Shown: positions 17,261 through 50,682, numbered from the stretch's first letter. The stretch is DNA of 64,000 bases from Deltaproteobacteria bacterium (GCA_009692615.1 SHYW01000010.1:2670-66669); one strand, 5' to 3'. A program made the numbers and translations. The notes: generated from the sequence alone by a model not told the origin.

Positions 17261-17266
17261 AGACTA

Positions 17267-17380: not shown

Positions 17381-17411
17381 ATCCGAACTTCTTTTCGACG
17401 GAGGACAGGCC

Positions 17412-18431: not shown

Positions 18432-18485
18432 CCGCCGGCGGTTAGAACGGAACCCGCGCTGGAATTAGAAAATGTTGGAGGCAAG

Positions 18486-19520: not shown

Positions 19521-19558
19521 TCGAGCAAGGCTCTGGAAGGATTACTTCGGAGAACCCC

Positions 19559-20605: not shown

Positions 20606-20680
20606 TCATTCGTTCAAGGTTCAAAAGTTCTAAGTCGGACACATTGAGAAGTCTTCAGTATTTTAAGGAGAGCCGGGTTG

Positions 20681-21727: not shown

Positions 21728-21809
21728 CTATTAGCGATCAACGGTCATTTATTAATTTTGGGCTTGCGCTGGTAACCGATAACTGAATACTGACGGCTCA
21801 CGGAGGTCG

Positions 21810-29211: not shown

Positions 29212-29331
29212 GGCACGCACGAGTGAAGGCTTGTCAAATTGCCCGTCAACGCGCAACTAAATTTCCTTATCCATTGACTGTTCAGATTTAGATAGTTTAT
29301 AACTACCTCCTGACACTGGAAGTGTCCCCCG

Positions 29332-30432: not shown

Positions 30433-30459
30433 GAACAATGAAACGAAGATGACCTGCCT

Positions 30460-31929: not shown

Positions 31930-32117
31930 TGGGAGAAAGTCGCATTATGGCCAGCTCAATCAGAATTACATGTCCCGGTTGTAATCAGGAGTTCTTGGTT
32001 TCTCCCCAGTTCGAAAAGCTAAGGATCGCAGCCAAGTGTCCGTTTTGCGAAAACGAATTCGCTATCGCAGATGGCAAGAACGTCGTCCGGCCAACTCCTA
32101 TCTTACTAGTCAAATAA
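31929..32117 (+). CDS. Small zinc-ribbon protein (CPxC..CPxC)
   Basis: ITCPGCNQEF..AKCPFCENEF. ATG 31929 overlaps the UbiD stop (TAATG). An alternative ATG 31947 follows GGGAGAAAG. Confidence 0.5.
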   Translation: MGESRIMASSIRITCPGCNQEFLVSPQFEKLRIAAKCPFCENEFAIADGKNVVRPTPILLVK

Positions 32118-32136
32118 TTCGACAAAGAAAGATACC

Positions 32137-33237: not shown

Positions 33238-33333
33238 TTTTGTAACCGTGGCCGATTCGATCTGACGGCCGCAATGACCGCCTGACCGGATTCCATCAGC
33301 GCGCACACGCGCGATGATTCGCCTCAAGCCATA

Positions 33334-35040: not shown

Positions 35041-35042
35041 AG

Positions 35043-36152
35043 ATGATGATCCGCGCTCACAATTTGAAGAAAGCGTTTGCCACCCAGGAGGAAAAAGTTT
35101 CCGCTTTAAATGGGATCGGCTTTGACGTCGAGTCCGGCAGCTTCTTTACTCTCTTGGGGCCTTCGGGATGCGGCAAGACCACCACCCTTCGCTGTATCGC
35201 GGGACTGGAGAGGCCCGATGAAGGAGAGATCGCGATCGGCGACAGGACCGTCTTCTCCTCTTCGCAGCGCATTTTTATTCCCGGAAATAAGCGCGATATC
35301 GGAATGGTTTTCCAGTCCTATGCGATCTGGCCGCACATGACCGTATACGGGAACGTTGCCTATCCTTTGCGGGCCAGGGGGCGGCCGCGAGCCGAGATTG
35401 AAGAAAAAGTTCATGCCGCGCTCAAGCTGGTGGGATTAGAGGATTTCCACGACCGGCTGGCGCCGCGGCTTTCCGGTGGGCAGCAGCAACGCGTCGCGCT
35501 CGCGCGCGCGTTGGTTGCGGAGCCGAGCGTCCTTCTCTTGGATGAGCCACTCAGCAACCTCGACGCCAAGCTGCGTAACCAGATGCGCTGGGAACTCAAG
35601 GACCTGCAGCGGCGGCTCGGAACCACGACGATTTACGTGACCCACGATCAAGTCGAAGCGCTGGCGATTTCGGATCGCATCGCGCTGATGAATAAAGGTC
35701 AAATCGCGCAGATCGGGACTCCGCGGGAGATCTATGCCAACCCGGTGAACGAGTTTGCCGCTGACTTTATCGGCGCCGCGAATATCATCAGTGGGGAGCT
35801 GAGCGAGGAGATAGACCATCGTAGCTTTGCGCGCATCACGACATCCTTTGGGGTGCTGATGGCGACGCAAAAGGGAGAGCTGAATAAGGCGTCGAAGGAT
35901 GTGCTGATCGCTTTCAGACCCGAGGATGTGTCACTAGTGAGCCAAGCGACTTGCGCCGAGGGTCAGCATAATGTTTTCCAAGGAATTGTCCAGGGATCGA
36001 CCTACCTTGGGGACTCAAGCGAATTTAGGATAACGGTTGGAGAACAGAGAATCCAGGCCAAAACAGATAGTACCACCCATTTCCCCGTCGGCGCCGTCGT
36101 CTATCTCAGTATCGCGCCGGCAGCGTGTCTAGTTATTCGCCGCGGCGATTGA
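35043..36152 (+). CDS. ABC transporter ATP-binding protein (FbpC/PotA-like)
   Basis: It has Walker A GPSGCGKTT, the signature LSGGQQQRVALARAL and Walker B LLLDEPLSNLD, plus a C-terminal regulatory/TOBE-like region. Confidence 0.95.
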   Translation: MMIRAHNLKKAFATQEEKVSALNGIGFDVESGSFFTLLGPSGCGKTTTLRCIAGLERPDEGEIAIGDRTVFSSSQRIFIPGNKRDIGMVFQSYAIWPHMTVYGNVAYPLRARGRPRAEIEEKVHAALKLVGLEDFHDRLAPRLSGGQQQRVALARALVAEPSVLLLDEPLSNLDAKLRNQMRWELKDLQRRLGTTTIYVTHDQVEALAISDRIALMNKGQIAQIGTPREIYANPVNEFAADFIGAANIISGELSEEIDHRSFARITTSFGVLMATQKGELNKASKDVLIAFRPEDVSLVSQATCAEGQHNVFQGIVQGSTYLGDSSEFRITVGEQRIQAKTDSTTHFPVGAVVYLSIAPAACLVIRRGD

Positions 36153-36425
36153 GAATAACCCTGCGGAGCGTGATCATTATCGCCTCAACACCTGCGTCAT
36201 ATTTGCATTCGTCTTTAGGCACTCAATCCTGGTTTGGATTTGTCGGAGCCTTGTGGGCGATACGCCACACTGCTCGTCAACCGCCCCAAAACAAAGATTT
36301 CCAGCCCTGCGCGTGTCCGCGCCGTTCTTAATCTACAAGGAGAAAAACTTACTTGACATCAATAATAATTAAATCTAAACAATAGGCTCCGCGACGATTT
36401 TAACCGAGAAGAACAAACCCTGAAT

Positions 36426-37409
36426 ATGTCGATCCTCTTCCTTCTCCAACTTTTGGGTACATGTCTCGCCTTGATATTAACGTTTGGGCAGGGGTTTAGC
36501 GCCGAGCCGCAAAAACTCGATCGCCTGAAGATCGGCTATGCTTCGATCAGCGGCAACCGGATCTCGCTATGGGCGACGCAAGATGCCGGTTTTTTTTCCC
36601 GTCATGGCATTCAAAGCGAGCTTATTTTTTTTCCTACGTCTGCACAGGGAATGCCGGCTCTTCTGGCTGGGGAGGTGCCGATATACTTAGGATCGGCGGA
36701 CACCGCAGCCCTAGCGGCGGCGCGGGGCTTTGAACTGGTCATATTTGCGAGCAATGAACCGACTCAATATAAGCTTATCGTCCAGCCCCATATTAGGAGC
36801 GTGAATGAATTGAGGGGACAAAGAATCGGCGTCGATCGTATCGGCAGCTCGAGCTATTACGCGACCAAAAGGATGCTAGAGAAGCTTGGGCTAAAAGCGC
36901 AAGACATGAAATTCTTGCCGGTCCCCGGCGGTGGGAATCAAAGAGCAGCGGCTTTCAGCTCGGGCAATCTCGAAGCGGTTGTCTCCACTGTTGAACGGTT
37001 CGAGCGCGCGAAGATTCCGTATCATGTTTTGGCAGATGCTGTCAGCATGGGTATTCGGGTGTTCGGCAATTCGTTTATCACGCCGCGTGTCTTTCGCGAT
37101 CAGAATCGAGATATTCTCACGCGATTTATCAGAGCCTTGGTCGACGCGAGTTACTGGCTCAAGGATCCAAAGAACCGAGAGAGTGCGCTCAAGATAGTGA
37201 GCCAGAGGCTCAGAACCTCGGACCCGGCGGTATTGAGTCTTAATTATCGCCTCTACATAGAACCGCTAATACCTTTACCGTATACCGACATCAATGACCT
37301 AAGGACAAACATCGAAGATCTCGCCCAAGAAAATGCCAAGCTTCGAGATTTCGATGTCGCTCGGATGGTAGATAATAGTTTCATACGTCAGGTCCAGCAG
37401 GATCGCTAG
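36426..37409 (+). CDS. NMT1/SsuA-like substrate-binding protein
   Basis: 327 aa with a signal peptide and family blocks (IRSVNELRGQRIGVDRIGSSSYY, LEKLGLKAQD). Confidence 0.8.
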   Translation: MSILFLLQLLGTCLALILTFGQGFSAEPQKLDRLKIGYASISGNRISLWATQDAGFFSRHGIQSELIFFPTSAQGMPALLAGEVPIYLGSADTAALAAARGFELVIFASNEPTQYKLIVQPHIRSVNELRGQRIGVDRIGSSSYYATKRMLEKLGLKAQDMKFLPVPGGGNQRAAAFSSGNLEAVVSTVERFERAKIPYHVLADAVSMGIRVFGNSFITPRVFRDQNRDILTRFIRALVDASYWLKDPKNRESALKIVSQRLRTSDPAVLSLNYRLYIEPLIPLPYTDINDLRTNIEDLAQENAKLRDFDVARMVDNSFIRQVQQDR

Positions 37410-37938
37410 CTGGTCTCGCCCACTGGGGCAGATAGTATTTTCTGATTCTATACGTTCGGCAACTCCATCCGTAGCGCCAACCCCAGCACATAAACTAAAC
37501 GGCATTTTCCTGGTTCAGCGCACAAAGCAAGTGGGCTTGTGATTGAACGCGCCATCGACCGACGCGGCGCTAACCGTTTGGCATCGGGGTCGCTCGCCCA
37601 ATCCATTTAGTCGATCGGGGCAAAGAGTTCTTCAATCTTGAGGCGCCGATCGGTTAGCCTTAAACCGACAATAAAATTGGCGTCAGGCAGCCAATTTGAG
37701 TTTGTCCTCGATGGGTTCGATCCGTTCTTGCGCCGCAGGAGTCACCGAGAAGCGCCGCACTGAGTAGCCTTGAGGCCAGATAAGACATGCCGAATGGTGA
37801 ATCCGCTTGAATCGGATCGTTTTCAACCTGTGTAGCAAGTAACCGCAAGTCCGTTTGCGCGATCTGGGCTTTGTTGTCGCCAGCGTCTGGAGCTGAAAGT
37901 TTCGTAGCAGGTTGTGGCTCAACACCGAGATCCGTTGC

Positions 37939-38136
37939 CAGGCCGAGAAAATGATCCAAGCCGTGCGCGCGAAAAAACTCCCGGTGGCCTATCTGACGTT
38001 CGAAGGCGAACAACACGGTTTCCGCGAAGCGGAGAACATCAAGCGCGTGCTTGAAGTGGAGCTATATTTCTACTCGAAAGTGTTTGGATTCGTACTGGCT
38101 GACCCGGTTGAGCCGGTGGAAATCGAAAATCTATAG
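37939..38136 (+). pseudogene. Displaced 3' fragment of an S9 peptidase gene (last 65 codons), copy 2
   Basis: [65 protein letters not shown] compares with the intact gene end [65 protein letters not shown]. Of 65 residues, 57 are identical. Homology stops abruptly upstream of codon Q. Confidence 0.85.
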
Positions 38137-38234
38137 AAACTCGCTGGCGCTTTTTCTCGCGCCGATGATCGGTGGTTTTTTGCCGGGTGCGCTGGTAGAA
38201 TTACGTTACTGACGCCCTTTAAACGTTAATATTT

Positions 38235-38585
38235 ATGGATACAGCCGCGGATCGGAAAAGCATCTATCCGGAAGTTGACGAAGAACTTCTCAAGGGAGTA
38301 GTTCGCCGTATTTGTGAAGCAGGAAGCCCTCACAAGATCGTTCTCTTCGGTTCCCGGGCTCGTGGCGATGCCCGTCCTGACAGCGATCTCGATGTGCTCA
38401 TTATTGAAGACTCAAACCTACCTCGGTACCAGCGAGCTACACGTTATCGCCGCGCGCTCTTGGGTTTGTTTCCAGCCAAGGACATTGTGGTTTGGACGCC
38501 GGCAGAAATTCACGAGTGGAGCGAAGTGCCCCATGCTTTCATCAGTATGGCGCTAAGAGAAGGCAAAGTTCTTTATGAAGGATAA
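38235..38585 (+). CDS. Nucleotidyltransferase-domain antitoxin (MntA-like)
   Basis: IVLFGSRARGDARPDSDLDVLII is the minimal-nucleotidyltransferase GS..RG..D.D motif. Confidence 0.85.
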   Translation: MDTAADRKSIYPEVDEELLKGVVRRICEAGSPHKIVLFGSRARGDARPDSDLDVLIIEDSNLPRYQRATRYRRALLGLFPAKDIVVWTPAEIHEWSEVPHAFISMALREGKVLYEG

Positions 38586-38961
38586 GGTCGCCCACGCCCG
38601 CGGCTGGTTCCTGAAAGGGGACAGCGACTTCGCGGATGTGCGGCGCACGGTGATCAGTGAAGGCCCTTTCGACACCGCGTGTTTTCACGCCCAGCAGGCG
38701 GCGGAAAAATATTTGAAGGGTCTGCTAGCGCACTTCGACGAGCCGATCCCCAAGACCCATGACATCGAGGAGCTCCAGCGACTCTGCCTCCCCCTTGCGA
38801 AAAACCAAAAGCTAGCTGAAATGGATCTGACGGTGCTTTCAGATTACGCTGTCCCCGCCCGGTACGACTTGGAGTTTTGGCCGGATCGGGACACGGCTGC
38901 TGACGCTCTGGCTCTCGCCGAACAGGTTCGCGAGATTGTCCTTGCCATTGTGTCACAATGA
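38575..38961 (+). CDS. HEPN-domain toxin (HepT-like)
   Basis: 128 aa overlapping the MNT gene by 11 nt. It has the HEPN helical pattern (FHAQQAAEKYLKGLL..KTHDIEEL..PARYD). Confidence 0.8.
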   Translation: MKDKVAHARGWFLKGDSDFADVRRTVISEGPFDTACFHAQQAAEKYLKGLLAHFDEPIPKTHDIEELQRLCLPLAKNQKLAEMDLTVLSDYAVPARYDLEFWPDRDTAADALALAEQVREIVLAIVSQ

Positions 38962-38982
38962 CGACCATCCTCGAACGCGTCG

Positions 38983-39015
38983 GAAGTGGAAACGGTGCAG
39001 ATCGAAAATCTTTAA
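38983..39015 (+). other. Possible third, very short remnant of the S9 peptidase 3' end
   Basis: GAAGTGGAAACGGTGCAGATCGAAAATCTTTAA encodes EVETVQIENL*. The intact gene ends [10 protein letters not shown]. By hand alignment, 21 of 26 nt match copy 2 just before the stop. Confidence 0.4.
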
Positions 39016-39027
39016 ACCGACAAAGTT

Positions 39028-39753
39028 ATGCCTGGTATAGATTCACTATCTCCGACGACGCTCATCATGGCAACGGCCATCATGATGCTTGGCGCCGCCA
39101 TTCAATCAGCGGTTGGAATCGGATTAGCGCTCGCTGCGGCTCCGCTACTGACGCTTCTTGAGCCACGATTCGTACCGGGACCGATGCTCTGTGCTTCAAT
39201 AGTCCTAGCGCTGGCAACCGCATGGCGCGAGAGAACAGCCATAGCGCAGGATCAACTTAACACATCGTTGCTGGGGCTGGTGATTGGCACTGGGATTGGA
39301 GCGAGCGCACTCACTATCATTACTCCCGACATTCTCCCGAAAGTTTTCGGCGTGTTCGTTCTCATTGCAGTGGCAATCAGCGTTTCTGGATTTTCGCTTC
39401 AGCCCACTTTGCTCGCGCTGGTTTTAGGTGGCACCGCGTCCGGCATTATGGGAACCATGATCGGAATTCACGGACCGGCGATAGCTTTGGTATATCAGAA
39501 CGTCGCGCCAGCGCGCGCACGCGCGACCCTGGGAGCATTTTTTACGGTGGGGTATTTGATCACTGTACTAGCTCTGGTTTGGATAGGCGTTTTCGGTTCG
39601 ACGGATCTTGCATTGTCGGTTATTCTTACTCCTGGAGTTCTCCTCGGTTGGGCCATCGGACCCAAACTCACACCGTTTTTGGACCCGCGCAGAACGAGAG
39701 CAAGTATCCTGACACTTTCCGCTCTCACGGCGTGTGCAAACTTGCTGAAATAA
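39028..39753 (+). CDS. TauE/SafE (TSUP) family membrane transporter, sulfite-exporter-like
   Basis: 241 aa, polytopic and glycine-rich in the helices (AIQSAVGIGLALAAAPLL). This is the DUF81-type pattern. Confidence 0.7.
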   Translation: MPGIDSLSPTTLIMATAIMMLGAAIQSAVGIGLALAAAPLLTLLEPRFVPGPMLCASIVLALATAWRERTAIAQDQLNTSLLGLVIGTGIGASALTIITPDILPKVFGVFVLIAVAISVSGFSLQPTLLALVLGGTASGIMGTMIGIHGPAIALVYQNVAPARARATLGAFFTVGYLITVLALVWIGVFGSTDLALSVILTPGVLLGWAIGPKLTPFLDPRRTRASILTLSALTACANLLK

Positions 39754-39778
39754 CGCACAGCTTAAACAATAAATAGCC

Positions 39779-40480
39779 ATGACCTACCGCGCAATCATTT
39801 TCGATCTCTTCGGCACCTTGGTGAACGACTTTATGTCGGTCACTGGCCAAACCCACGATGAACTCGCGGCGATTCTCCGCGTGCCTTATGAACCGTTCAT
39901 GAAACAGTGGCGCGAGATAACCGGACGACGCACGATGGGAGAGTTTCAGACTGTCGAAGCCAGCATCGACCACGTCTGCGCTGCGCTCGGTGTGATGGTG
40001 AATGCCGATCAAATGGTCCAAGCCGTCGAGTTTCGCTTGGCGTACACCCGGCGTGCGCTCGTGCCCAAATTGGATGCCGTCTCAACATTAACGCAATTGA
40101 AACAAACAGGTTTCCAAGTCAGCCTGCTGAGCAACTGCTCCATCGAGATTCCGATCTTGTGGCCGGAAACCGAATTCGCCGACTTAATCGAAAGCCCTAT
40201 CTTCTCTTCTCGCGAGCGGCTGAAGAAACCCGACCCGCGCATCTACCGAATCGCCTGCGAGCGCCTGGGCGTCGCGCCGAAAGATTGTCTCTACATCGCC
40301 GACGGAGAAAATCACGAGCTGAAAGCTGCCGCCGATTTTGGCATGAGCCCAGTGTTGATCCGACCCACTTCGCATGAGCCTCGCGGCGAATTGCGCCAGG
40401 AAGCAAGAGAGTGGCAAGGGACAAATATTTCGACGTTGTCTGAAGTATTGGTCATCGTCGGCAACGAGCGCAGATTGTGA
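39779..40480 (+). CDS. HAD-superfamily hydrolase
   Basis: Motif I is IIFDLFGTLV. The later SN and ..YIADGENHELKAA motifs are also present. Confidence 0.85.
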   Translation: MTYRAIIFDLFGTLVNDFMSVTGQTHDELAAILRVPYEPFMKQWREITGRRTMGEFQTVEASIDHVCAALGVMVNADQMVQAVEFRLAYTRRALVPKLDAVSTLTQLKQTGFQVSLLSNCSIEIPILWPETEFADLIESPIFSSRERLKKPDPRIYRIACERLGVAPKDCLYIADGENHELKAAADFGMSPVLIRPTSHEPRGELRQEAREWQGTNISTLSEVLVIVGNERRL

Positions 40481-40492
40481 AAACTAAGCAGT

Positions 40493-40984
40493 ATGACGAT
40501 TCGCGACGCCACTGAAACCGATCTGCCAGCCATCTTAGAAATATACAACGCGGCAATCCCCGGCCGCATGGCTACCGCGGATACGCAAACGGTAACAGTC
40601 GAAAGCCGGCGCAACTGGTTCCATGAACATGATCCAAACACGCGGCCACTTTGGATCGCTCTAGAGAATGATGTCATCGTCGGCTGGCTAAGCTTTCAAT
40701 CGTTCTACGGCCGCCCTGCTTATCATGCGACGGCTGAGTTGAGCGTTTACGTAGCCTCCCAACATCGGCGCAAAGGAATAGGCAGCGCGCTTCTCACCGA
40801 AGCGATCGCACGGGCGCCGCGCTTGACACTAAAAACTCTCGTCGGCTTCATATTCGCGCACAATGAACCGAGCCTGCGGCTGTTCGAAACGTTCGGCTTT
40901 CAACGCTGGGGAGTTTTGCCGAGGGTTGCCGAGCTCGACGGCGTGGAGCGCGATCTGGTAATTGTTGGGCGACGCTTGGCGTGA
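40493..40984 (+). CDS. GNAT N-acetyltransferase, phosphinothricin/methionine-sulfoximine acetyltransferase-like
   Basis: IRDATETDLPAILEIYNAAI..HRRKGIGSALL..GFQRWGVLPRVAELDGVERDLVIVGR is typical of PAT-type GNATs. Confidence 0.8.
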   Translation: MTIRDATETDLPAILEIYNAAIPGRMATADTQTVTVESRRNWFHEHDPNTRPLWIALENDVIVGWLSFQSFYGRPAYHATAELSVYVASQHRRKGIGSALLTEAIARAPRLTLKTLVGFIFAHNEPSLRLFETFGFQRWGVLPRVAELDGVERDLVIVGRRLA

Positions 40985-41016
40985 ACTGAATACAGGACCG
41001 GTCTCTGAAGGAAACC

Positions 41017-41670
41017 ATGAGTCGACTCCCCCGCAGATTGTACTTTACATTATTGCTTTTGCTGGTTGGCAGTTCTGCCGCCGCTGAACCGAATGTTTGG
41101 GAAGATTCGTTCAACGCCCAAACCAAAGAGCGCTATTTCCCGGTCGAACTCTGGGCTGGCGTCGAATGGGATGGCAATCGCGAGTTGAAGATGCCGAAGT
41201 CCGATTTCACCTTCCGTCATCGATCCGAATACCGCATCAAAGGCCCGGTGGAGTGGGAACATCCGGTGATGCGCCAAACGTTTACGGTTTACGAACGATT
41301 GAACCCAGGCCGCGGCGGAATGAAAACTCAGAGATTCACGATCAACCAAGAAAGAAACGGCCTGGGCCGCGTCTACGACGACCGATCGGAGCTGGGCACG
41401 CGAATGTTTTCCGACGGCCTCAAGTTTCCCTTGGGAGTTTGGAAAGAGGGCGAGACGCGCAAGTTTGTCTACAAACATTTTGAAGGCGCGCGGGTCAGCG
41501 ACCGCGCCGAGACGATCACGATCAAGCAAATCGATTTTAAATTTTTCCAAAGCTCCCACTGCGTAGAATTCTATTGGACCGCCACCGATCGCGACGAGAA
41601 ACGCTATTACGATCGCCAGACCTATGTTTACTGCCCCGGCAAAAGCATGGTCAGTCAGATTCAGCACTGA
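41017..41670 (+). CDS. Hypothetical secreted protein
   Basis: 217 aa with signal peptide RRLYFTLLLLLVGSSAAAEP. I recognise no family. I prefer it over the 401-aa antisense ORF. Confidence 0.5.
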   Translation: MSRLPRRLYFTLLLLLVGSSAAAEPNVWEDSFNAQTKERYFPVELWAGVEWDGNRELKMPKSDFTFRHRSEYRIKGPVEWEHPVMRQTFTVYERLNPGRGGMKTQRFTINQERNGLGRVYDDRSELGTRMFSDGLKFPLGVWKEGETRKFVYKHFEGARVSDRAETITIKQIDFKFFQSSHCVEFYWTATDRDEKRYYDRQTYVYCPGKSMVSQIQH

Positions 41671-41673
41671 AGG

Positions 41674-42408
41674 ATGACCGATTCGATGACCGCCTACGAC
41701 CGATTTGCAAAATACTACGACCGGGTCATGGGCGATCGCTCGGCGGCGGCGGATTACATTGGCGATCTCATCGAGCGCTACCACCCAGAGGCGAAGACAG
41801 TTTTGGAAATCGCCTGCGGCACCGGCGGCATAACGGGCCGGCTGTCCGAATCCTACGATGTCACCGGCCTCGACCGCTCGCGGAAAATGTTGGCTATCGC
41901 GCGCCAACGGTTGCCGCACATCCATTTTCACCGCCAAGACATCACCAGCTTTCGCGTCAACCGGCGCTTCGACGCTATCGTCTGCGCCTTCGACTCGATC
42001 AATCATTTGCATCGATTCGCTGACTGGCGGAAAACCTTTCGTTGCGTTGCTCGCCATCTCAACAGCGGCGGCGTTTTCGTTTTTGACGTCAATACCAACG
42101 GCAAACTTCAGCGTCTTGTCGAAGGGTCGGCGTGGATCAAACCGTTCGGCCGCGATCTCGTGGTGATCAAAGTTAACCAAGGACGCAGAGCAATTTTCAC
42201 CTGGGATGTAAAAATCTTTGCGCATCGGAAAGGCGATAGCTATAAACTCATTCACGAGACCATTGAAGAGATTGCCGTTCCAATGACCCGCATTTTGACT
42301 TGCTTACGAAGTAAATTTACGGCAGTCAAAGTGTTCGATCCCGAAGGCGGGCGGCCATCGGATCGCTCGGAGCGGCTGTACTTCGTCTGCAAAGCAAAAG
42401 CGAAATGA
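41674..42408 (+). CDS. Class I SAM-dependent methyltransferase
   Basis: Motif I is VLEIACGTGG, followed by post-I VTGLDRS and ..FDAIVCAFDSINHL. Confidence 0.85.
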   Translation: MTDSMTAYDRFAKYYDRVMGDRSAAADYIGDLIERYHPEAKTVLEIACGTGGITGRLSESYDVTGLDRSRKMLAIARQRLPHIHFHRQDITSFRVNRRFDAIVCAFDSINHLHRFADWRKTFRCVARHLNSGGVFVFDVNTNGKLQRLVEGSAWIKPFGRDLVVIKVNQGRRAIFTWDVKIFAHRKGDSYKLIHETIEEIAVPMTRILTCLRSKFTAVKVFDPEGGRPSDRSERLYFVCKAKAK

Positions 42409-42425
42409 CGCAGATCTAAATTCGC

Positions 42426-42932
42426 ATGATAATCCGCCAAGCGACAATCGCAGACGCAGCCGACTTGGTCGCAGCGGAGCAAGAAACCGCGCGCACCGCG
42501 GGCTTGCTCGTCTCCCGCCCCGATGAACTGAAGCGCGCTGCGTTCGAGCACAAGATCGCCGAACTCGCCACCACGGGTCGTTATATAGTTGCGGAGAGCA
42601 ACGGCGAGATCGTCGGCCATGCGCTGTTAGATCCAATGCCACTGACGGCGACCGCTCATGTCCTTCGTCTGACGATCGTCGTGCACCCAGGTTTTCTCGG
42701 CCGCGGCATCGGCGAAGCCCTCATGCGCGACCTCATGGATTGGGCGGAGCGAACAACCAAGGCGCGGAAAATTGAATTGCTGGTTCGCGCTACAAATGCG
42801 CGTGCGATTCATTTATATTCCAAGCTCGGCTTTGTCGAAGAAGGGCGCTTTAAAAACCGCTTACGTTTGCCGGATGGAAACTATATCGACGACATCGCCA
42901 TGGCGTGGTTTCCAATGCGCAAGCATGATTAA
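42426..42932 (+). CDS. GNAT-family N-acetyltransferase
   Basis: 168 aa. ..VHPGFLGRGIGEALM.. is the acetyl-CoA binding motif, and ..YSKLGFVEEG is also present. Confidence 0.8.
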   Translation: MIIRQATIADAADLVAAEQETARTAGLLVSRPDELKRAAFEHKIAELATTGRYIVAESNGEIVGHALLDPMPLTATAHVLRLTIVVHPGFLGRGIGEALMRDLMDWAERTTKARKIELLVRATNARAIHLYSKLGFVEEGRFKNRLRLPDGNYIDDIAMAWFPMRKHD

Positions 42933-43033
42933 TTGCGGCGCATCGGTGGCAAAAGGGTCGGCCATTTTGTTCCGCATGATCGACACATTGTGCTATTGTT
43001 CACCGACCGGAAATTCCATTTAGAAAGTTGAAT

Positions 43034-44206
43034 ATGTCACATCAGCCCCCGACTCACTTCGAACAGCCTCAGGGATTTCTATCGCTGGCCAAGAACGTCG
43101 GCATCAAAGACGCCACGCTCGATCTCACGGTCATTTACTTGACCGTACGCGCCCGCGCGGCGGCGATGTTTACGCGCAACCGCTTTCCTGGCGCGCCGGT
43201 GATCGTTGGACGCAAGCATATCGCCAACGGTTTCGCACAAGCGCTTGTCATCAACAGCAAGAATGCCAACGTGGCGATGGGAAAACTCGGCATCGACAAC
43301 GCGGTGGAAACTTGCCGCATCGTCGGAACCGAGCTCGGCATCGATCCCTACGATGTCCTGCCGTTTTCCACCGGCGTCATCGGCCGGCCGTTGCCGATGG
43401 ATAAAATCCGCGCTGGACTCAAAGGCATTCGCAGTGAGCTGAAGCCGGATAACCTGAAGCTCGCCGCCGAAGCGATCATGACCACCGACATGTATCCCAA
43501 ATATATTTCCGTGCGCGTCGGCAAGGCGATCATCGCCGGCATCGCCAAAGGCGCCGGCATGATCGAACCGAACATGGCGACGATGCTTGTCTATCTCATG
43601 ACCGACGCCGAATTGCCAAAGACGGCGCTCAAGCCGATGCTCAAGCGCATTGTTGACCGTACGTTTAACGCCATGAGCATCGATACCGACACCAGCACCA
43701 GCGACACGGTGGTGCTGATGGCCAACGGCTTCGCCGGCAAAGTGAAGTTGCCGCAGTTTGAAAAAGGCTTGCTGCAAGTCTGCGAATATCTCACCCGCGA
43801 GATCGCCCGCAACGGCGAAGGCGTGACTAAACTCATCACGGTCGACGTCAGCGGCGCAAAGACTTCAGCGCAGGCGAAACGCGTCGGCAAGTTGGTGGTA
43901 AATTCGCCGCTGGTCAAAACCGCCGTCTATGGCGCCGATCCCAATTGGGGCCGAGTCATCATGGCGGTCGGCAAAAGTTTCGATCCAAGCATCGAACCGG
44001 CGAAAGTCACCATCCGCTTCGGCGCCACCGCGGTATTCAAGAAGGGTTCACCCGTCGACTGCGACCTCGAAGCGCTGCGTAAATATTTGAGCCAGGGCGA
44101 AGTCAGCATCGGCGTCGATCTCGGCATCGGCAAAGCCAAGGCGCGCGTCTGGGGCTGCGACTTGACCGAAGGTTATGTGAAAGAGAACGCGTACTACACA
44201 ACGTGA
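43034..44206 (+). CDS. argJ: Bifunctional ornithine acetyltransferase / N-acetylglutamate synthase
   Basis: GIAKGAGMIEPNMATMLVYLMTDA contains the autoproteolytic ATML-T site, and the C-terminus ..GCDLTEGYVKENAYYTT is typical. The track start is TTG 43028; ATG is at 43034. Confidence 0.9.
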   Translation: MSHQPPTHFEQPQGFLSLAKNVGIKDATLDLTVIYLTVRARAAAMFTRNRFPGAPVIVGRKHIANGFAQALVINSKNANVAMGKLGIDNAVETCRIVGTELGIDPYDVLPFSTGVIGRPLPMDKIRAGLKGIRSELKPDNLKLAAEAIMTTDMYPKYISVRVGKAIIAGIAKGAGMIEPNMATMLVYLMTDAELPKTALKPMLKRIVDRTFNAMSIDTDTSTSDTVVLMANGFAGKVKLPQFEKGLLQVCEYLTREIARNGEGVTKLITVDVSGAKTSAQAKRVGKLVVNSPLVKTAVYGADPNWGRVIMAVGKSFDPSIEPAKVTIRFGATAVFKKGSPVDCDLEALRKYLSQGEVSIGVDLGIGKAKARVWGCDLTEGYVKENAYYTT

Positions 44207-44239
44207 TCGGAATTCCTCACGCAAGATTCGGAGAAGAGA

Positions 44240-44325
44240 TTCACCACGAAAAGCACGAAACACACGAAATGATTGAGAAGATCGATTTCTTTTTTTCGTG
44301 ATTGTCGTGTGTTTCGTGGTTTGAT
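44240..44325. repeat. CACGAA-periodic hairpin repeat, copy 4
   Basis: TTCACCACGAAAAGCACGAAACACACGAAAT .. TTTTTTCGTGATTGTCGTGTGTTTCGTGGTTTGA. The arms are imperfect reverse complements of about 30 nt. The element sits between argJ and the amidohydrolase gene. Confidence 0.65.
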
Positions 44326-44328
44326 TTT

Positions 44329-45504
44329 ATGACCGCACGAAATTTATCGAACTTTCTACTCAAAGGCGGACGCCTCATCGATCCGGCAATTGGCACCGAC
44401 GGCGTGCTCGACATCCGTGTGCGCGACGGCAAGGTTGACGCCATCGGCGCCAATCTCAATGCCGACGGCGCGACGGTCGTCGACGTTAAAGGCCAGATCG
44501 TCACGCCGGGATTGATCGATGTCCATCTCCATTTAATGAAAGGTCTCGGCGCCTTCGGCGTCGATCCGGATATTTTCGGCGTCGGTTCCGGCGTCACCAC
44601 CGTCGTCGACGCCGGCAGCGCCGGCCACACCATGCTCAACGTCTTTCGCAACTACGTCACCGACAACGCCAAGACGCGAGTGCTGAATTACATCAACCTG
44701 TCCACGCTCGGCGGCGTCGCCGGACCGGGATTCAGCATTCTCGCCGATCCGCGCTTGATTGATGAAGCGAAGATCGAGCAGGCGGTCGAGGCCAACCGCG
44801 ACATGATCGTCGGCATCAAGATCATGGCCACCGGCGGCGCGCTGGGCGCGCAGGGGCTGAAGCCGTTGGAGCGCGCGCGCAAACTCGGCGACGAACTAAA
44901 AATTCCGCTGCTGGTTCACATCGGTGAGAGCTGGACCCAGGGTACCGAGCCGGTCGCCGTCGGCGACGTGCTCAAATATTTGCGTGCCGGCGATATTGTC
45001 ACGCATATGTTCACCGTCCATCCCGGCGGCTTGCTCGACGGCAATGGCAAACTCTGGCCGCAAGTTCGAGATGCAAAGGCATCCGGTGTATTGATGGACG
45101 TCGGCCACGGTTTGCATAATTTGAACTTCGACGTCGCCCGCAAAGTCCTCGACCAAGGCCTCCATCCCGACGGCGTTTCCACCGACGGCCACCGCGGCAA
45201 CCGCGCCGGGCCCGTATACGATCTGCCGACGACCATGGGGAAGTTAATGGCGCTGGGATTTTCCCTGAATCAAGTGATCGAGATGGCGACTGCCAACGCG
45301 GCGAGACTGCTTGGCAGAAGCGGCGACCTCGGCACACTGAAAGTTGGCGCACCGGCGGAAATATCAGTGCTGAAGATCGAAGACAGAGAGTGGAAAGCGC
45401 TGGACTCGCAAAAAGGCACGATTCCCGCGCATCAAACCATCACTCCGGTCTACGCCATCCGCGGCGCGTCGATTTACGAGCCACTGCCGGTCGAGCGGCC
45501 GTAA
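44329..45504 (+). CDS. Metal-dependent amidohydrolase/deacetylase-family protein
   Basis: Track ORF 44302..45504. The first 9 codons run through the repeat, so I prefer ATG 44329. LKGGRLIDP..VTPGLIDVHLHL carries the HxH metal motif. Confidence 0.85.
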   Translation: MTARNLSNFLLKGGRLIDPAIGTDGVLDIRVRDGKVDAIGANLNADGATVVDVKGQIVTPGLIDVHLHLMKGLGAFGVDPDIFGVGSGVTTVVDAGSAGHTMLNVFRNYVTDNAKTRVLNYINLSTLGGVAGPGFSILADPRLIDEAKIEQAVEANRDMIVGIKIMATGGALGAQGLKPLERARKLGDELKIPLLVHIGESWTQGTEPVAVGDVLKYLRAGDIVTHMFTVHPGGLLDGNGKLWPQVRDAKASGVLMDVGHGLHNLNFDVARKVLDQGLHPDGVSTDGHRGNRAGPVYDLPTTMGKLMALGFSLNQVIEMATANAARLLGRSGDLGTLKVGAPAEISVLKIEDREWKALDSQKGTIPAHQTITPVYAIRGASIYEPLPVERP

Positions 45505-45812
45505 ATGGAACTGACCTGAATTAGCTTTGGTGTCACAATATTTTTTCGGGGCATGGAGGGACCGGGGTCCACTGGCTGCGCGGCGTTTGAAGAAAAAGCG
45601 AATGTGAGTGGAATCGTAAGTACGAGAAACAAGATTATTGTTGGAGAGATGAAGTCATCGGGAGATCCGGCCTGCAAGGATTCTCAAAATCGGCACTTTT
45701 CAGTTCCCTATCTCGTAGAACCAGCACAAACAAAGCCTCGCAATCGACGGGTTTGGAACAATAGTAGTCATTCTGTTTTACGCGCTACGCATCGCATAGC
45801 TGTCATTGATGG

Positions 45813-46103
45813 TCACACCAACTCAAGGCGCAGTCGGCGGCCGATTGCTGACGCCGCTCGGCTCAAGGTAGCCAAAGTGACGCCGTCATTGTTTGGATCG
45901 AGCAAGCGGTTAAGCTGTACGCGGCTGGTAGCCATACGCCGCGCCATTTCGGTGCGAGTGAGATTTTGTTTTTGCATGGCTTGTTCGATTTGCCACGCCA
46001 CGACTTTCTTGATGGAGGCGTTGGTGGCTTCTTCGTAGATGCCTTCCTCTTTGAGCCAATCCTCGAACCGTCCACCGATATGGCGGTTTTTGCGCTTCTT
46101 CAT
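45813..46103 (-). CDS. higA: XRE-family HTH antitoxin (HigA-like)
   Basis: This is the internal ATG 46103-46101 of track ORF 45813..46310. MKKRKNRHIGGRFEDWLKEEG..QKQNLTRTEMARRMATSRVQLNRLLDP is the HTH. Its ATG overlaps the toxin stop (ATGA). Confidence 0.8.
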   Translation of the reverse strand: MKKRKNRHIGGRFEDWLKEEGIYEEATNASIKKVVAWQIEQAMQKQNLTRTEMARRMATSRVQLNRLLDPNNDGVTLATLSRAASAIGRRLRLELV

Positions 46104-46444
46104 CGTTTTGCCTCTCCCATTCGTTTTATGGCCAGCGCCAGATCGCCCTTTGGAGTCTTTTGCGTCTTCTTGATGAAGCCATGCAGCAATAGCAACTCGC
46201 CGTCGATCACACAAAACAGCACTCGGACGATGCGCCGGCTTGGTAAATCGCTGCGTATTTCCCAAAGCCCGTCGCCGAGCGATTTGCATAACGGCATGCC
46301 AATCGGCCAACCAAATTCAACATCACGGATGTCATGCCCGACATGTTTACGGTCGGTAACCGGCAAGCGCATCAACCAGTCACGAACCGGATTGGCTCCA
46401 GCTGCCGTGAGATAGAAACGAGCCACGACACGCTTAATCGGCAT
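46100..46444 (-). CDS. higB: RelE/ParE-superfamily toxin (HigB / Gp49-like)
   Basis: This is the internal ATG 46444 of track ORF 46100..46507. MPIKRVVARFYLTAAGANPVRDWL..LGDGLWEIRSDLPSRRIVRVLFCVIDGELLLLHGFIKKTQKTP is the typical pattern. Confidence 0.8.
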   Translation of the reverse strand: MPIKRVVARFYLTAAGANPVRDWLMRLPVTDRKHVGHDIRDVEFGWPIGMPLCKSLGDGLWEIRSDLPSRRIVRVLFCVIDGELLLLHGFIKKTQKTPKGDLALAIKRMGEAKR

Positions 46445-46575
46445 CGATCCTTGCACACCTTCATGTTGTACCAATATCGGTACGCCGTCAATCGCAATGG
46501 TTGGCACGCTGACTTCGGATCGTGGGCTGCTTTCTTTTGAGTCGGGTTCAGAATGAATCCCAGCTAAGTTGACTA

Positions 46576-46689
46576 TGGTAAGCGCTCGACTCGCAAAAAG
46601 ACTCGATCCCCGCCCACCAAACTATCACGCCCGTCTACGCCATCCGCGGCGACGCGATCTACGAGCCGTTGCCGGTCGAGCGACCGTGA
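46576..46689 (+). pseudogene. Displaced 3' fragment of an amidohydrolase gene (last 37 codons plus stop)
   Basis: It reads W*ALDSQKDSIPAHQTITPVYAIRGDAIYEPLPVERP*. The intact gene end (45391-45504) reads WKALDSQKGTIPAHQTITPVYAIRGASIYEPLPVERP*. The two are equal in length, and 96 of 114 nt are identical by hand alignment. Eleven of the 18 differences are synonymous third-position changes. Confidence 0.85.
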
Positions 46690-46698
46690 CACGTTACG

Positions 46699-47997
46699 CT
46701 AAGCTAATTCACTCTCGGTTGCCAGCCGGCGAACCAGCAACGCCCAAGCGATGAGGATCGGCACGCTGATTTGCACGGCAAAGCGCGGCCAGCCCAACGC
46801 CGGACCGATTTGCAACATCCCCAAACTTAAGTAGGAGCCGACGAAAACCGCGACGTAGACCAAAGCGGACCAGACCAGCAATCGACCGCCATCCAGCGCG
46901 CGGCTGTTGGTACCTTGCGCGTAATGCGACCAGACGATGGTCAGCGGCAAGAGCAAAATCATCAGATCGTAAAACATCAGGTGCGGACTGATCACCAGTG
47001 CCAACGCCAAAGTCGCCGCCATGCGGAAATCCCAAGAGCGCGTTGCCGGCTGCCATGGCGACGAACGCCAGCAGCAATAAACCAGCGCCAAGCCGGCGAG
47101 CGTTAACAACACGGAAAGTAATTTGACGACTTCAACCGGCAAGAAACCGCTGAACAGCAAAATGCAAAAGCCGTAGAGATTATGCAGCTTGGCGATCGGA
47201 TAGCTTGGCAGAAACGGCAGCTGCGCGATCTGCGGTATGACGCGCAAGTAATCCAATGTGGCGGTCAGACTGAGCAAGCAACCGACAGCGATCCACAGCG
47301 CCGAGGTTAACAGACAACCGCTAAGCGCGCGCCAACGCCCGTTGAGCAAAAGTAGAAACCCAGGCACGATCATGAGCTGCGGTTTGTAGAGCAGACAGCC
47401 GAGCGCAACGCCGGCGCTCAAGTCCGCGCCGCGGCGCAAGCGAACAAAGAGAATCGTCAACAAAAGAAACGACAGCGCTGAGTTCTGGTTCGCGAGGAAC
47501 CAAGCGATCGTCGGATAAAAACAAAAACTCAGCAGCATAAGCGCCGCCGTCGAGTAACTAGCCAGCGGCGCCAATTCCCAACGCAGCATGTTCCACGCGA
47601 ACGCCAACGCCGCCAAGCCGGCGACAGTCCACAGCATGAGGCCGATTTCGAAACTCGCCAGCGCGAACGGCGCGTAGAGCAAAACTGTATGAGGCGGATG
47701 GTTGAAGGGCGTGAACTGATCGGCGCTCAGTTTGAGCGTCGCCATCTGAAAGGTTTGCTGGGCGGCGAAATCGTATAACTCACTCAACCGTCCATCCAAA
47801 AAAAATCGCCCGCCGGTGAAGAATTAAATAAAATCGCCGTCGTGAAACAACGAACGCGCCGACGGATGGAATAACGTGCTCAACGCAATCGCCAGGGCAA
47901 CTAGCGGCAGCGCTCGAGTATAAATTTTTATCCGGCGCGAATTGAGCCAGCCGGCGACAGCGGCAATCAAGCGCGAAGAACAATCGATGGCAGCCAA
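46699..47997 (-). pseudogene. GT87/DUF2029-like polytopic membrane glycosyltransferase with in-frame TAA
   Basis: Track ORF 46699..47799 continues upstream in the same frame (..LPLVALAIALSTLFHPSARSLFHDGDFI*FFTGGRFFLDGRLSELYDF..). It is interrupted only by TAA at 47826-47824. The start codon is uncertain (TTG 47997 or CTG 48003). The family call is moderate. Confidence 0.55.
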
Positions 47998-48010: not shown

Positions 48011-49459
48011 TCAGCGCCGCCGGCGCGTCGTCGATCCGAATATCGAGCCTAAGGCGCCGCGAATGATTTCCCGTCCCACCTGGCTGCCGATGGCACGCAC
48101 CGCGCTGGTCGCCATGGCGCCGAGCAACTTGCCGGCGGTGGATTGCCATTCACTTGGCGCCGCGGCCGTTCCGGTTTCCGCTTGCGGCGCGCGGGCTTTG
48201 AGCAGTTCGTAGGCCGATTCGCGGTCGACAACTTTTTCGTAGTGGCCGAAGAGCGACGATTGTTTGATCAAGGTGTCCCGCTCGCCGGCGCTCAAGGGCG
48301 GCAGTTGGCTTTGCGGCGGAAAGATCTGCGCGCGGTCGACCACGTTGGGTTGGCCTTTGTCGTTGAGAAACGACACCAGCGCTTCGCCGACGGCCAGTTC
48401 GGTGATCGCGCTTTCGACGTCGATATCGGGATTCTGGCGAAAAGTTTGCGCCGCCGCTTTCACCGCCTTCTGATCCCGCGGCGTGAAGGCGCGCAAAGCA
48501 TGTTGCACGCGGTTGCCCAACTGGCCGAGCACGACATCGGGAACGTCGAGGGGATTTTGCGTGACGAAGTAAACCCCGACGCCCTTGGAGCGAATCAAGC
48601 GGATCACCTGTTCGATTTTTTCCAAGAGCGCGTCGGGCGCGTCGGTGAATAGTAAATGAGCTTCATCGAAAAAAAATACCAGCTTGGGTTTCTCCGGATC
48701 GCCGACCTCGGGCAAGCGCTCGAACAGTTCCGAGAGCAGCCAGAGCAAAAACGTCGCGTAAAGCTTCGGCGCGGCGATCAATTTGTCGGCGTTAAGAATA
48801 TTGATCACGCCACGGCCGGCGCCATCAGTTTGCATCAGGTCGTCGAGATCGAGGGCCGGTTCGCCAAAAAATTTGTCGGCGCCCTGCTCTTCCAAACCGA
48901 GCAAGCCGCGTTGGATCGCGCCGATGCTCGCCGCCGAAACGTTGCCATATTGGGTTTTGAACTGCGCCGCGTTGTCGCCGACATACTGGAGCATGGCGCG
49001 CAGGTCCTTCAAATCGAGCAGCAGCATGCCGTTGTCGTCGGCGATTTTGAAAACCAGCGTCAGCACGCCGCTCTGGGTTTCATTGAGGTTGAGCAAGCGC
49101 GCCAACAGTAGCGGCCCCATGTCAGAGATGGTCGTGCGCACCGGATGGCCCTGCTCGCCGTAGAGATCCCAAAACACCGTCGGGTAACCGGCGAAGCTGA
49201 AATCTTTCAAACCGATCTGAGCGGCGCGCTCGGCGATCTTAGGGTTGTCGACGCCCGGCCGGGCGATGCCCGACAAATCGCCTTTGACATCCGCCATGAA
49301 CACCGGCACGCCGATGGCACTGAAGTGTTCGGCGATCACCCGCAGGGTCACCGTCTTGCCCGTGCCGGTGGCGCCGGCGATCAGCCCATGGCGATTGGCC
49401 AGACGTGGCAGGAGTAAATGAAGCGCTTTTCCTTTGCCGATCGGCAAACCTACAATCAT
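48011..49459 (-). CDS. HerA-like helicase-domain ATPase (DUF853 / YjgR family)
   Basis: 482 aa. It has Walker A GATGTGKT in ..[26 protein letters not shown].., and ..[12 protein letters not shown] (Walker B). Confidence 0.85.
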
Positions 49460-49633: not shown

Positions 49634-49688
49634 CATCGAGTGGGTTCCAAAAAATTTAGAAACTGATTCCATGAAAGGGGATTACTTA

Positions 49689-50072
49689 ATGAAACGTTTT
49701 CTAGGCGTATTAGTTGCTTCGATGTTTCTCGCCTCGGCGGCTTTTGCGGCGGATGCCATGAAAGAAGAGAAGAAGGCCGATGCCAAAGCTGATGCCAAGG
49801 CAATGAAAGAAGAGAAGAAGGCCGATGCCAAAGCGACCAAAGAAGAGAAGAAGGCTGATGTGAAGGCCACCAAGGAAGAGAAAAAGGCCGACGCCAAAGC
49901 CGATGCCACGGCAATGAAGGAAGAAAAGAAGGCCGATGCCAAGGCAATGAAGGAAGAGAAGAAGTCTGATGCCAAGGCTACCAAGGAAGAGAAAAAGGCC
50001 GACGCCAAAGCCGATGCCAAGGCAATGAAGGAAGAAAAGAAAGCCGAGAAGAGCGACAAGCCCAGCAAGTAA
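49689..50072 (+). CDS. Secreted lysine/glutamate/alanine-rich tandem-repeat protein
   Basis: Track ORF 49671..50072. ATG 49689 follows AAAGGGGA and gives signal peptide MKRFLGVLVASMFLASAAFAADA. Eight units of [M/T]KEEKKADAKA follow, some with an extra DAKA. Confidence 0.75.
   Translation: MKRFLGVLVASMFLASAAFAADAMKEEKKADAKADAKAMKEEKKADAKATKEEKKADVKATKEEKKADAKADATAMKEEKKADAKAMKEEKKSDAKATKEEKKADAKADAKAMKEEKKAEKSDKPSK
49758..50060 (+). repeat. Coding tandem repeat, 33-nt and 45-nt units with a 111-nt higher-order period
   Basis: ATGAAAGAAGAGAAGAAGGCCGATGCCAAAGC.. is repeated eight times. The pattern of 15+11+11 aa units recurs about 2.7 times. Confidence 0.85.
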
Positions 50073-50355: not shown

Positions 50356-50682
50356 ATGAAAAACAAACTCGCACTCTTGATCGCCGTCATCTTCTTCAGC
50401 TCGGTTGGATTAGTCGCAGCCAAAGACTATCAAGTCACCGGTCCCGTGGTTGACGTCAAAGACGATGTCATCGTCGTCAAAAAAGGCGCCGACAACTGGG
50501 AACTCGCCCGCGACAAGGACACCAAAGCCACCGGCGAGTTCAAAAAAGGCGACAAAGTTACGATCAAATATAAAATGATCGCCACCAGCATCGAAGGTAA
50601 AGAAGCGCCCAAGGCCAAAGCCGAAACCAAGACCAAGGCCGACGACAAGATGAAGGGCGACGCCAAAGCTAAAACCAAGTAA
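50356..50682 (+). CDS. Small secreted protein with lysine-rich C-terminal tail
   Basis: 108 aa. The RBS AAGGAGA lies upstream. The signal peptide is MKNKLALLIAVIFFSSVGLVAA. A compact domain (DYQVTGPVVDVKDDVIVVKKG..KVTIKYKM) precedes the tail KAKAETKTKADDKMKGDAKAKTK. Confidence 0.7.
   Translation: MKNKLALLIAVIFFSSVGLVAAKDYQVTGPVVDVKDDVIVVKKGADNWELARDKDTKATGEFKKGDKVTIKYKMIATSIEGKEAPKAKAETKTKADDKMKGDAKAKTK

Follow-up and report, generated by a model that had tools for sequence, protein, structure and literature searches.

We analyzed a 64,000-nt stretch of a metagenomic contig from Deltaproteobacteria bacterium (GCA_009692615.1, SHYW01000010.1:2670-66669), called the window throughout, and found that two toxin-antitoxin (TA) pairs of different families, higBA and MNT-HEPN, each lie ahead of a displaced, diverged copy of the 3' end of a conserved gene. 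For higBA the gene is an amidohydrolase gene, and for MNT-HEPN it is an S9 peptidase gene, behind which an 8.7-kb block that is not a TA system is bracketed in the same way. Homology-anchored, one-sided recombination at gene-end hotspots behind conserved genes is probably the best explanation for these scars. A first-pass annotation of the sequence had raised this kind of capture alongside a recombinase acting in trans on gene 3' ends, and the evidence presented below favored the former.

Domains were called by Pfam scans of the window open reading frames (ORFs) of at least 70 aa; about ten of these ORFs had no Pfam match and are hence unclassified. Gene-end duplicates in the window were scored against a null, and the loci were compared with ~25 related genome loci and 67 related metagenome loci. 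The contig is listed in ENA under ERZ1305449. The nearest sequenced relatives were metagenome-assembled genomes (MAGs) labelled Candidatus Binatia, 'delta proteobacterium' or Syntrophobacter. The relatives were ~16% diverged from the window and not isogenic with it.

A displaced amidohydrolase gene end beyond higBA

The intact amidohydrolase gene is followed by the higBA cassette and then by a second copy (c2) of its own last codons (Table 1), as the first-pass annotation had described. The direct repeat (c1/c2; 45391-45502 versus 46576-46687) spans 112 nt at 85% identity with a stop codon ending both copies, and it was the best-scoring gene-end duplicate of the window, tandem paralogues and the S9 pair aside. 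An independent Logan assembly (L001) contained the identical sequence with the same architecture. Among the relatives, only an independent MAG (L007) shared the full occupied architecture, with the junction at a position identical to that in the window. The cassette had ~90% nucleotide identity to that of L007 and was missing in every other relative compared. Judged from sequence, the toxin-first order and the 4-nt gene overlap would fit a type II operon of a Gp49/RelE-like HigB and an HTH-type HigA. Upstream of higB, the first 75 nt (46445-46519) of a 131-nt region were conserved in L007 and the other 56 nt were not. The spacer behind the amidohydrolase gene measured 308 nt in the window versus ~765 nt in L007, where an extra 110-aa ORF lacking a Pfam match and absent from the window (L007 7001-7333, minus strand) lies between the amidohydrolase stop and higA. 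The third codon of c2 carries a nonsense change and a Gly-to-Asp change is also present. The GT87 gene is convergent with c2 and ends 9 nt from its stop. A second ENA contig from the same sample (48,879 bp) terminates within higB, which could reflect strain heterogeneity between occupied and empty sites.

Orthologues of the amidohydrolase, with 80-94% aa identity, were present at ~85 related loci. In many relatives whose contig reached far enough, the gene was convergent with the HerA-like gene across a gap of ~3 to ~400 nt with neither GT87 nor higBA in between, and the closest relative (L213, 94% aa) likewise had the amidohydrolase convergent with HerA. On one metagenome contig (L193), GT87 comes immediately behind an intact amidohydrolase gene (91% aa), higBA and the duplicate both being absent; this contig thus serves as the empty site for higBA. 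Close GT87 relatives among the genomes were confined to the L007 contig, so the genomes yielded no pre-insertion allele. At the other edge of the slot, no duplicates of the HerA 3' end were found. We also compared the two amidohydrolase copies with the relatives to decide which one is foreign; identity differed by less than 1 standard deviation (~5%) between 111-nt windows, so that neither copy stood out as foreign. On L193, HerA matches by its first 44 residues only (2462-2593), this fragment lying ~235 nt upstream of the GT87 match. Palindromic inserts of 100-200 nt (GGCCGCAAAGAACGCAAAA...TTTTGCGTTCTTTGCGGCC), resembling repetitive extragenic palindromes (REP) or miniature inverted-repeat transposable elements (MITE), were seen in the amidohydrolase-HerA spacer of L004, L008, L016 and L027, and a similar hairpin-like stretch occurs in the window between ArgJ and the amidohydrolase gene (44207-44320).

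The nearest relatives of HigB (72-77%) were on plasmid-like contigs, in ParAB, TrfA/RPA and MobA contexts, and members of the family were found on 440 plasmids. This would suit a history in which larger plasmids or prophages entered by a Campbell-type crossover or through a mobile element and were then trimmed by deletion until just the TA pairs were left, the addictive TA pair resisting loss. The unexplained 308-nt spacer and the longer L007 spacer with its extra ORF could be remnants of such trimming, and a streamlining model of this kind has been published for TA islets (PMC13617665). Such a history would leave unexplained the same scar at the 8.7-kb non-TA block and the survival of a useless displaced gene end through otherwise thorough deletion, and at several loci elsewhere, in other genomes, repeats lie close to the TA operon. 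We consider it rather improbable as the whole account, while noting that it is partly compatible with one-sided recombination.

A nested stack of inserts behind the S9 peptidase gene

The S9 locus is a nested stack in the order S9a, 8.7-kb block, S9b, MNT-HEPN, S9c, TauE, HAD. The first-pass annotation had placed MNT-HEPN between a whole gene and a displaced copy of its end. The TA pair is real and copy c is credible, but the supposed whole gene upstream is a 66-codon fragment (b), and the intact S9 gene, 75-92% identical to the S9 genes of relatives, lies at 27277-29211. Copies a and b were identical at 164 of 197 nt (83%; 29014-29210 versus 37939-38135), and no S9 similarity was detected upstream of 37939. 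The best local nucleotide alignment of copy c was identical at 19 of 22 nt and was at null level by score alone; when the last 10 codons of c and b were compared by eye, 23 of 30 positions were identical. We regard copy c as credible despite its score because 'IENL*' (asterisk, stop) occurred only three times in the six frames of the window, each time at an S9 end, and because c starts where homology with the MNT-HEPN cassette of a relative (L002) stops (~38985). MNT followed by HEPN with an 11-nt overlap has the layout expected of a type II MNT-HEPN pair.

Alternative alleles of this slot were found among the relatives. The HAD start directly adjoins the S9 stop in L003. L002 has the order S9-MNT-HEPN-HAD, with leader, genes and ~25-nt tail as in the window, and with no copy c and no TauE; its S9 gene extends to the 5' end of the contig, 384 aa being present. 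An unrelated gene of ~400 aa occupied the slot in L008 and L010, and L003, L005 and L010 each had a single S9 end. The 8.7-kb block was missing between S9 and HAD in L002, L003, L005, L008 and L010, and TauE was missing in all 25 relatives examined by tblastn (L002-L027). The S9-HAD slot is a gene-gain hotspot. Since the 8.7-kb non-TA block is bracketed by the same scar as MNT-HEPN, the scar is not TA-specific, and the architecture is not a property of TA cassettes as the first-pass annotation had taken it to be. The last 529 nt of the block (37410-37938) could not be annotated, and a UbiD relic looked for there was not found. NMT1 homologues were followed as a lead to the donor of the block and set aside, the close ones sitting in a different NMT1-UbiD context. 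No duplicates of the HAD 5' end were found at the slot edge. Directly upstream of the intact S9 gene lies a third TA pair (26374-27263), in which a Xre-type antitoxin (Xre-like-HTH with a MbcA/ParS C-terminal domain) precedes a RES-domain toxin; a search of its surroundings for gene-end duplicates gave none.

Table 1. Features of the two gene-end loci, in window coordinates
Feature	Position	Strand	Evidence or remark
S9 (prolyl-oligopeptidase family) peptidase gene, intact, 644 aa	27277-29211	+	Pfam Peptidase_S9, E = 2.4e-52
S9 copy a, last 197 nt of the intact S9 gene	29014-29210	+	
Insert 1, 8.7 kb, non-TA	29212-37938	+	between S9 copies a and b
Cupin gene	29332-30432	+	insert 1; Pfam
UbiD-like gene	30460-31929	+	insert 1; Pfam
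ABC transporter substrate-binding protein gene	32137-33237	+	insert 1; Pfam
ABC transporter permease gene	33334-35040	+	insert 1; Pfam
ABC transporter ATPase gene	35043-36152	+	insert 1; Pfam
NMT1-like substrate-binding protein gene	36426-37409	+	insert 1; Pfam
S9 fragment b, displaced last 66 codons including stop	37939-38136	+	weak Pfam Peptidase_S9 match, profile C-terminus
MNT-HEPN cassette, 98-nt leader, genes and ~25-nt tail	38137-38985	+	0.85 kb
MNT antitoxin gene	38235-38585	+	NTP_transf_2, E = 4e-13
HEPN toxin gene	38575-38961	+	HEPN, E = 6e-23
S9 fragment c, displaced last 10 codons and stop (VETVQIENL*)	38986-39015	+	borderline repeat, 22-30 nt
TauE/SafE-family membrane protein gene	39028-39753	+	Pfam TauE; accessory, between S9 c and HAD
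Amidohydrolase gene, intact, 391 aa	44329-45504	+	Pfam Amidohydro_1
c1, last 112 nt of the amidohydrolase gene, stop after	45391-45502	+	direct repeat with c2
higBA cassette including spacer and upstream region	45505-46575	-	Pfam; 1.07 kb
Spacer, 308 nt, without recognisable content	45505-45812		higBA cassette
higA antitoxin gene	45813-46103	-	HTH_37/HTH_26, matches near or under cut-off
higB toxin gene	46100-46444	-	Gp49/PF05973, E = 2e-19
c2, displaced last 37 codons and stop of the amidohydrolase gene	46576-46689	+	repeat with c1
GT87-family membrane glycosyltransferase gene	46699-47799	-	Pfam GT87; accessory gene of the slot
HerA-like ATPase gene	48011-49459	-	HerA_C/DUF87; conserved right-hand neighbor of the slot

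Chance similarity or an artefact of metagenomic assembly is very unlikely to have produced these patterns. The S9 c match taken alone has a null-level score and the second ENA contig ends within higB, but the 112-nt and 197-nt repeats are far above the null, the higBA architecture was reproduced in the L001 assembly and the L007 MAG, and in our judgement repeats that are just 83-85% identical make mis-joins unlikely.

The displaced copies diverge like alleles

For six pairs of a functional and a displaced copy, three from the loci above and three from the surveys described below, we sorted the nucleotide differences by codon position (1/2/3). The counts were 4/4/25 for S9 a/b and 4/2/11 for amidohydrolase c1/c2 in the window, 9/4/14 for c1/c2 in L007, 4/4/7 for the pair in L089, 2/1/7 in L262 and 2/2/7 in L129, giving 25/17/71 when pooled. 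The share at position 3 was thus 71/113 (63%), which equals the 63% observed when orthologous genes of the window are set against those of L007. A duplicate that arose in situ and then decayed neutrally would be expected to have 44% of its differences at position 3, and this origin was rejected (P = 3e-5). The two c2 copies, of the window and of L007, differed at 20 of 111 sites (18%) versus 33% of the four-fold degenerate sites in neighboring genes (P = 3e-4), indicating that c2 is too conserved for neutral drift. Frame and stop were kept by the displaced copies of the window amidohydrolase and S9 pairs, L262 and L129; the stop was lost in c2 of L007, and the L089 pair needed one alignment gap. 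Overall, the displaced copies had few damaging changes. Because the differences concentrate at third codon positions, the copies look like the 3' ends of two diverged alleles that were joined, or like sequences that functional alleles have overwritten time and again.

A rival reading is an in-situ origin, a long target duplication in the strict sense, in which the cassette would enter at a staggered or resected break filled by repair synthesis that copies 30-200 nt, the divergence being added later by allele replacement through homologous recombination. Long target duplications with repeats of ~45-420 bp, often across a stop or start codon, are documented for restriction-modification (RM) modules (PMC2853133). 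At higBA an in-situ origin would also agree with two observations: no donor allele was found, and the cassette's nearest relatives are plasmid-borne, so that the amidohydrolase end need not have come along with it. HigB and HEPN toxins are RNases, and the DNA-breakage rationale offered for RM modules is inapplicable to them. Moreover, the copies are 15-17% different with 63% of the changes at third positions versus the ~44% expected under neutral drift, and displaced copies retain frame and stop in the window pairs, L262 and L129. We therefore regard this origin as unlikely.

Mobility genes and boundary signals

No ORF of at least 70 aa in the 64-kb window matched an integrase, resolvase or transposase family by Pfam, which bears out, for these 64 kb, the first-pass claim that no recombinase accompanies the scars. 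No tRNA genes were found in a tRNA scan and no Rfam families in an Rfam scan. The six cassette boundaries had nothing in common beyond shuffled controls, and at the boundaries that the first-pass annotation had named for a check on conserved short motifs the similarity was at or near the shuffled level. A reverse-strand match between hig_L and mnt_L scored 10 versus a shuffled maximum of 9 and was treated as chance. Neither terminal inverted repeats nor attC-like palindromes were present at the boundaries, where only short scattered inverted pairs were seen. An 11-nt perfect inverted match (45517-45527 and 46701-46711; TGAATTAGCTT and AAGCTAATTCA) is probably also chance and was not conserved in L007; its arms lie 12 and 11 nt past the two amidohydrolase stops, the second arm being the GT87 end. 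The putative illegitimate junctions map to ~37938/37939, 38985/38986 and 46575/46576. The inserts measured 0.85, 1.07 and 8.7 kb, all below 20 kb, with duplications of 30-197 nt. The two S9 junctions were at different positions, 66 and 10 codons before the stop, and this difference argues against a fixed att site or a fixed-core recombinase in S9.

Site-specific integration therefore seems a doubtful source of the scars, whether by a tyrosine or serine recombinase supplied in trans or through remnants of integrase elements (similar to cis-mobilizable elements, CIMEs, or to the icd elements e14 and phage 21, which have an attP resembling the target gene's 3' end). An intact gene, an element and a displaced 3' end form the classic attL/attR picture known from e14/phage 21 and icd, gene ends borne by such elements likewise diverge mostly synonymously, and the amidohydrolase junction has the same position in the window and L007. 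The shared junction is nevertheless accounted for by common descent or block transfer, and a recombinase that targets gene 3' ends is at odds with the differing S9 junctions, with boundaries that hold no common motif, with the lack of a tRNA target and with the lack of a recombinase gene in the 64 kb.

Recurrence of the scar in other genomes

The first-pass annotation had made further examples of a gene end, a small cassette and a diverged copy of the same gene end a check on its reading, and such examples exist. We surveyed 80 diverse genomes with HigB relatives (55-64% identical), in which 71 cassettes were testable. Flanking direct repeats were found at 7 of the 71 cassettes versus 3 of 375 control positions (Fisher P = 1.6e-4), in a survey that is small and whose controls are simple offsets. 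The repeats were 55-148 nt long, 80-96% identical and 22-270 nt from the operon: in L129, L139, L127 and L092 they were within ~70-130 nt upstream of higB, and their distance downstream of higA was 22-63 nt, and in L132, L138 and L145 up to ~270 nt from the TA operon. Two clear gene-end cases were L089, a Leptolyngbya MAG in which the C-terminus of PolA is involved, and L129, where the gene end concerned belongs to a 391-aa ORF convergent with higA. The one control match inspected (L122; the others were L148 and L142) consisted of tandem TctC-family paralogues and not of a cassette. In a survey of MNT-HEPN, 1 of 20 loci (L262) had 144 nt of the neighbor's 3' end duplicated past the pair. Finally, the fetched loci, ~1 Mb in all, contained 813 gene ends; ten of these were well above the null, of which at least one represents tandem paralogues and one is L007. 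The higBA survey, a quick one, suggests such a scar at roughly a tenth of higBA cassettes.

Near-identical 3'-end copies of two adjacent genes were observed in L045 (Vicinamibacterales; 988-1146 versus 2791-2917 and 4013-4053), where they sit past a 410-aa ORF that starts with a Walker-A-like GKS motif. This locus looks like a young scar of the same kind with non-TA cargo.

The recurrence can also be read in another way, in which the direct repeats would serve addiction modules as active ends in a cassette life cycle that needs no recombinase. Recombination of repeat by repeat would free a circle with the TA pair and one gene end, the circle would require only RecA to insert again at the orthologous gene end in a related genome, and addiction would kill cells that merely lose the circle. 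If true, this would explain the repeats at ~10% of higBA cassettes across unrelated phyla, the coding-like state of both copies and the same architecture at RM modules; we nonetheless consider such a cycle improbable.

Relation to described systems

Of the classes already described, insertion with long target duplication comes closest, and the scar is of a known kind and not a new mobile element. An earlier reference for the class is Nobusato et al. 2000 (Gene 259:99). Furuta, Abe and Kobayashi (2010; PMC2853133) described it for RM modules that are flanked by long, variable direct repeats and lack mobility genes, and their report, as far as its text was available, supplies the matching element type that the first-pass annotation could not name. 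In that text the repeats, tens to hundreds of bp long, often reach across a neighbor's stop or start, a single copy is present at the empty site, the mechanism is left unresolved and the published RM repeat pairs are mostly 93-100% identical (e.g. 47/47, 44/46, 417/423 and 384/412). The window loci agree in having repeats longer than 30 bp (112 nt and 197 nt, with S9 b/c borderline at 22-30 nt), a single copy at the empty sites (L193 for higBA; L003, L005 and L010 for S9; ~16% diverged), inserts below 20 kb without mobility genes among ORFs of at least 70 aa, a small addiction module as insert and a neighboring gene that stays intact. They differ in their cargo, which is HigBA, MNT-HEPN or a transporter/UbiD block and not an RM system, in repeats that are 83-85% identical with synonymous-type divergence instead of near-identical copies of the recipient sequence, and in toxins of the RNase type, which the breakage rationale for RM modules does not fit.

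A second point of comparison is homology-facilitated illegitimate recombination, in which homology is one-sided and which has been seen experimentally in Acinetobacter, Streptococcus pneumoniae and Pseudomonas stutzeri, mainly in laboratory transformation and usually with deletion of recipient DNA. It resembles the window loci in having one homologous anchor with an illegitimate joint nearby and no element-specific recombinase, and it would account for the variable junctions and for one foreign repeat copy. A donor-type allele with the cargo beside the anchor homologue was found for MNT-HEPN and none was found for higBA or the 8.7-kb block. The class would also call for an illegitimate joint at 3-12 bp of microhomology near the anchor, which could not be shown at the junctions of the window, itself part of a Binatia-like MAG. 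The e14/phage 21 insertions in icd and the CIMEs share with the window an intact gene, an insert and a displaced, diverged 3' end with mostly synonymous differences; in contrast, the window has no integrase in 64 kb, no fixed crossover, no conserved att motif and inserts down to 0.85 kb.

Integrons carry small promoter-bearing TA cassettes with repeats of 60-140 nt in chromosomal arrays. Unlike those of integron cassettes, the repeats in the window are coding 3' ends of the neighbor and not attC, and neither IntI nor an array is present. Transposons, insertion sequences and MITEs are dissimilar as well: terminal inverted repeats are absent from the window loci and the duplications are 30-197 nt, not short. 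Hotspots between core genes and 'TA islets' have been described by Oliveira et al. 2017 (PMC5635113) and Belot et al. 2026 (PMC13617665). In the available text of these reports, as in the window and its relatives, the cargo of a slot varies between relatives and TA-only islets lack mobility genes, and spread was proposed to occur through homologous recombination at the core genes on either side. Displaced gene-end scars are not described in that text, and a duplicated 24-bp res-like palindrome is reported instead in the available part of Belot et al. 2026.

A model for the acquisition of the inserts

From the anatomy of the loci, their alternative and empty alleles, the lack of mobility genes and motifs in the 64 kb and the allele-like divergence of the copies, we infer the following series of events. 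The TA pairs occupy accessory-gene slots, S9 peptidase-HAD and amidohydrolase-HerA. The incoming DNA would come from a related lineage in which the 3' part of the conserved gene is followed by the cargo, the cargo thus lying behind an orthologous gene. A homologous crossover within the conserved gene would join the first end, and the far end, which has no homology, would be joined illegitimately, a few to 66 codons before the resident stop. The incoming 3' end would then complete the gene, and the resident 3' end would be displaced past the cargo and persist as a fossil. For MNT-HEPN, the S9-MNT-HEPN arrangement in L002 is a donor-type allele. Repeated rounds at S9 could have produced the order S9a, 8.7 kb, S9b, MNT-HEPN, S9c, TauE. 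Once formed, a block of the type A-c1-cargo-c2-G could enter an A-G genome through two homologous crossovers, possibly inside c1 or c2. Because crossovers can fall in the repeats, the window and L007 can have the junction in common and yet have repeats that resemble local alleles. Loss of the insert by recombination of c1 with c2 would be penalised by TA addiction, which probably helps repeat-flanked inserts to persist.

Several points weigh against one-sided recombination. Among the ~90 related loci, no allele with amidohydrolase-higBA and no c2, and no 'S9-cupin...' allele, was found, and because no donor-type allele was found for higBA and the 8.7-kb block, the donor step is conjectural at these two inserts. 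It was not possible to establish microhomology at the putative illegitimate joints, and the amidohydrolase repeats (111 nt) are too short to tell which copy is foreign. Since the nearest HigB relatives are on plasmid-like contigs, higBA may have first arrived on a larger element by another route. Furthermore, an in-situ duplication that was later overwritten by homologous recombination would also give allele-like divergence.

Other features of the window

Eight paralogues of an NMT1-like substrate-binding protein, 60-78% identical, are encoded at 12494-22847, the last seven in tandem ~1.03-1.17 kb apart, and further NMT1-like genes are scattered across the window. An in-frame TAG on the minus strand (4714-4716) splits a thiamine-pyrophosphate (TPP) enzyme gene, with the N-terminal TPP-binding domain on one side (4714-5031) and the central and C-terminal domains on the other (3355-4713); the gene could be a pseudogene, or the TAG could be read through or stem from a sequencing error. 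Two NIR_SIR ORFs (9504-11030 and 10913-11794) overlap in an odd manner. Adjacent genes for topoisomerase VI subunits B and A are present in this bacterial contig at 59688-62820. Lys/Ala/Glu/Asp-rich repeat proteins with periodic units of 33 nt and 45 nt (MKEEKKADAKA...) are encoded at 49671-50072 and 50356-50682.

Implications

Reviews call the chromosomal integration of TA systems 'unelucidated' or 'unclear' (PMC7167474, PMC13617665), and the scars described here offer a usable lead on how TA pairs enter chromosomes. They extend to TA systems a class that had so far been described only for restriction-modification systems. The window would represent a clean natural record in which a single gene gained three inserts behind it in succession, each with a datable fossil of the previous gene end. 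Should larger data sets bear this out, recent recombinase-independent gene gain could be recognized by displaced gene ends, an inexpensive marker that needs no annotation, and they would support a test of whether addiction modules stabilise otherwise unstable repeat-flanked inserts.

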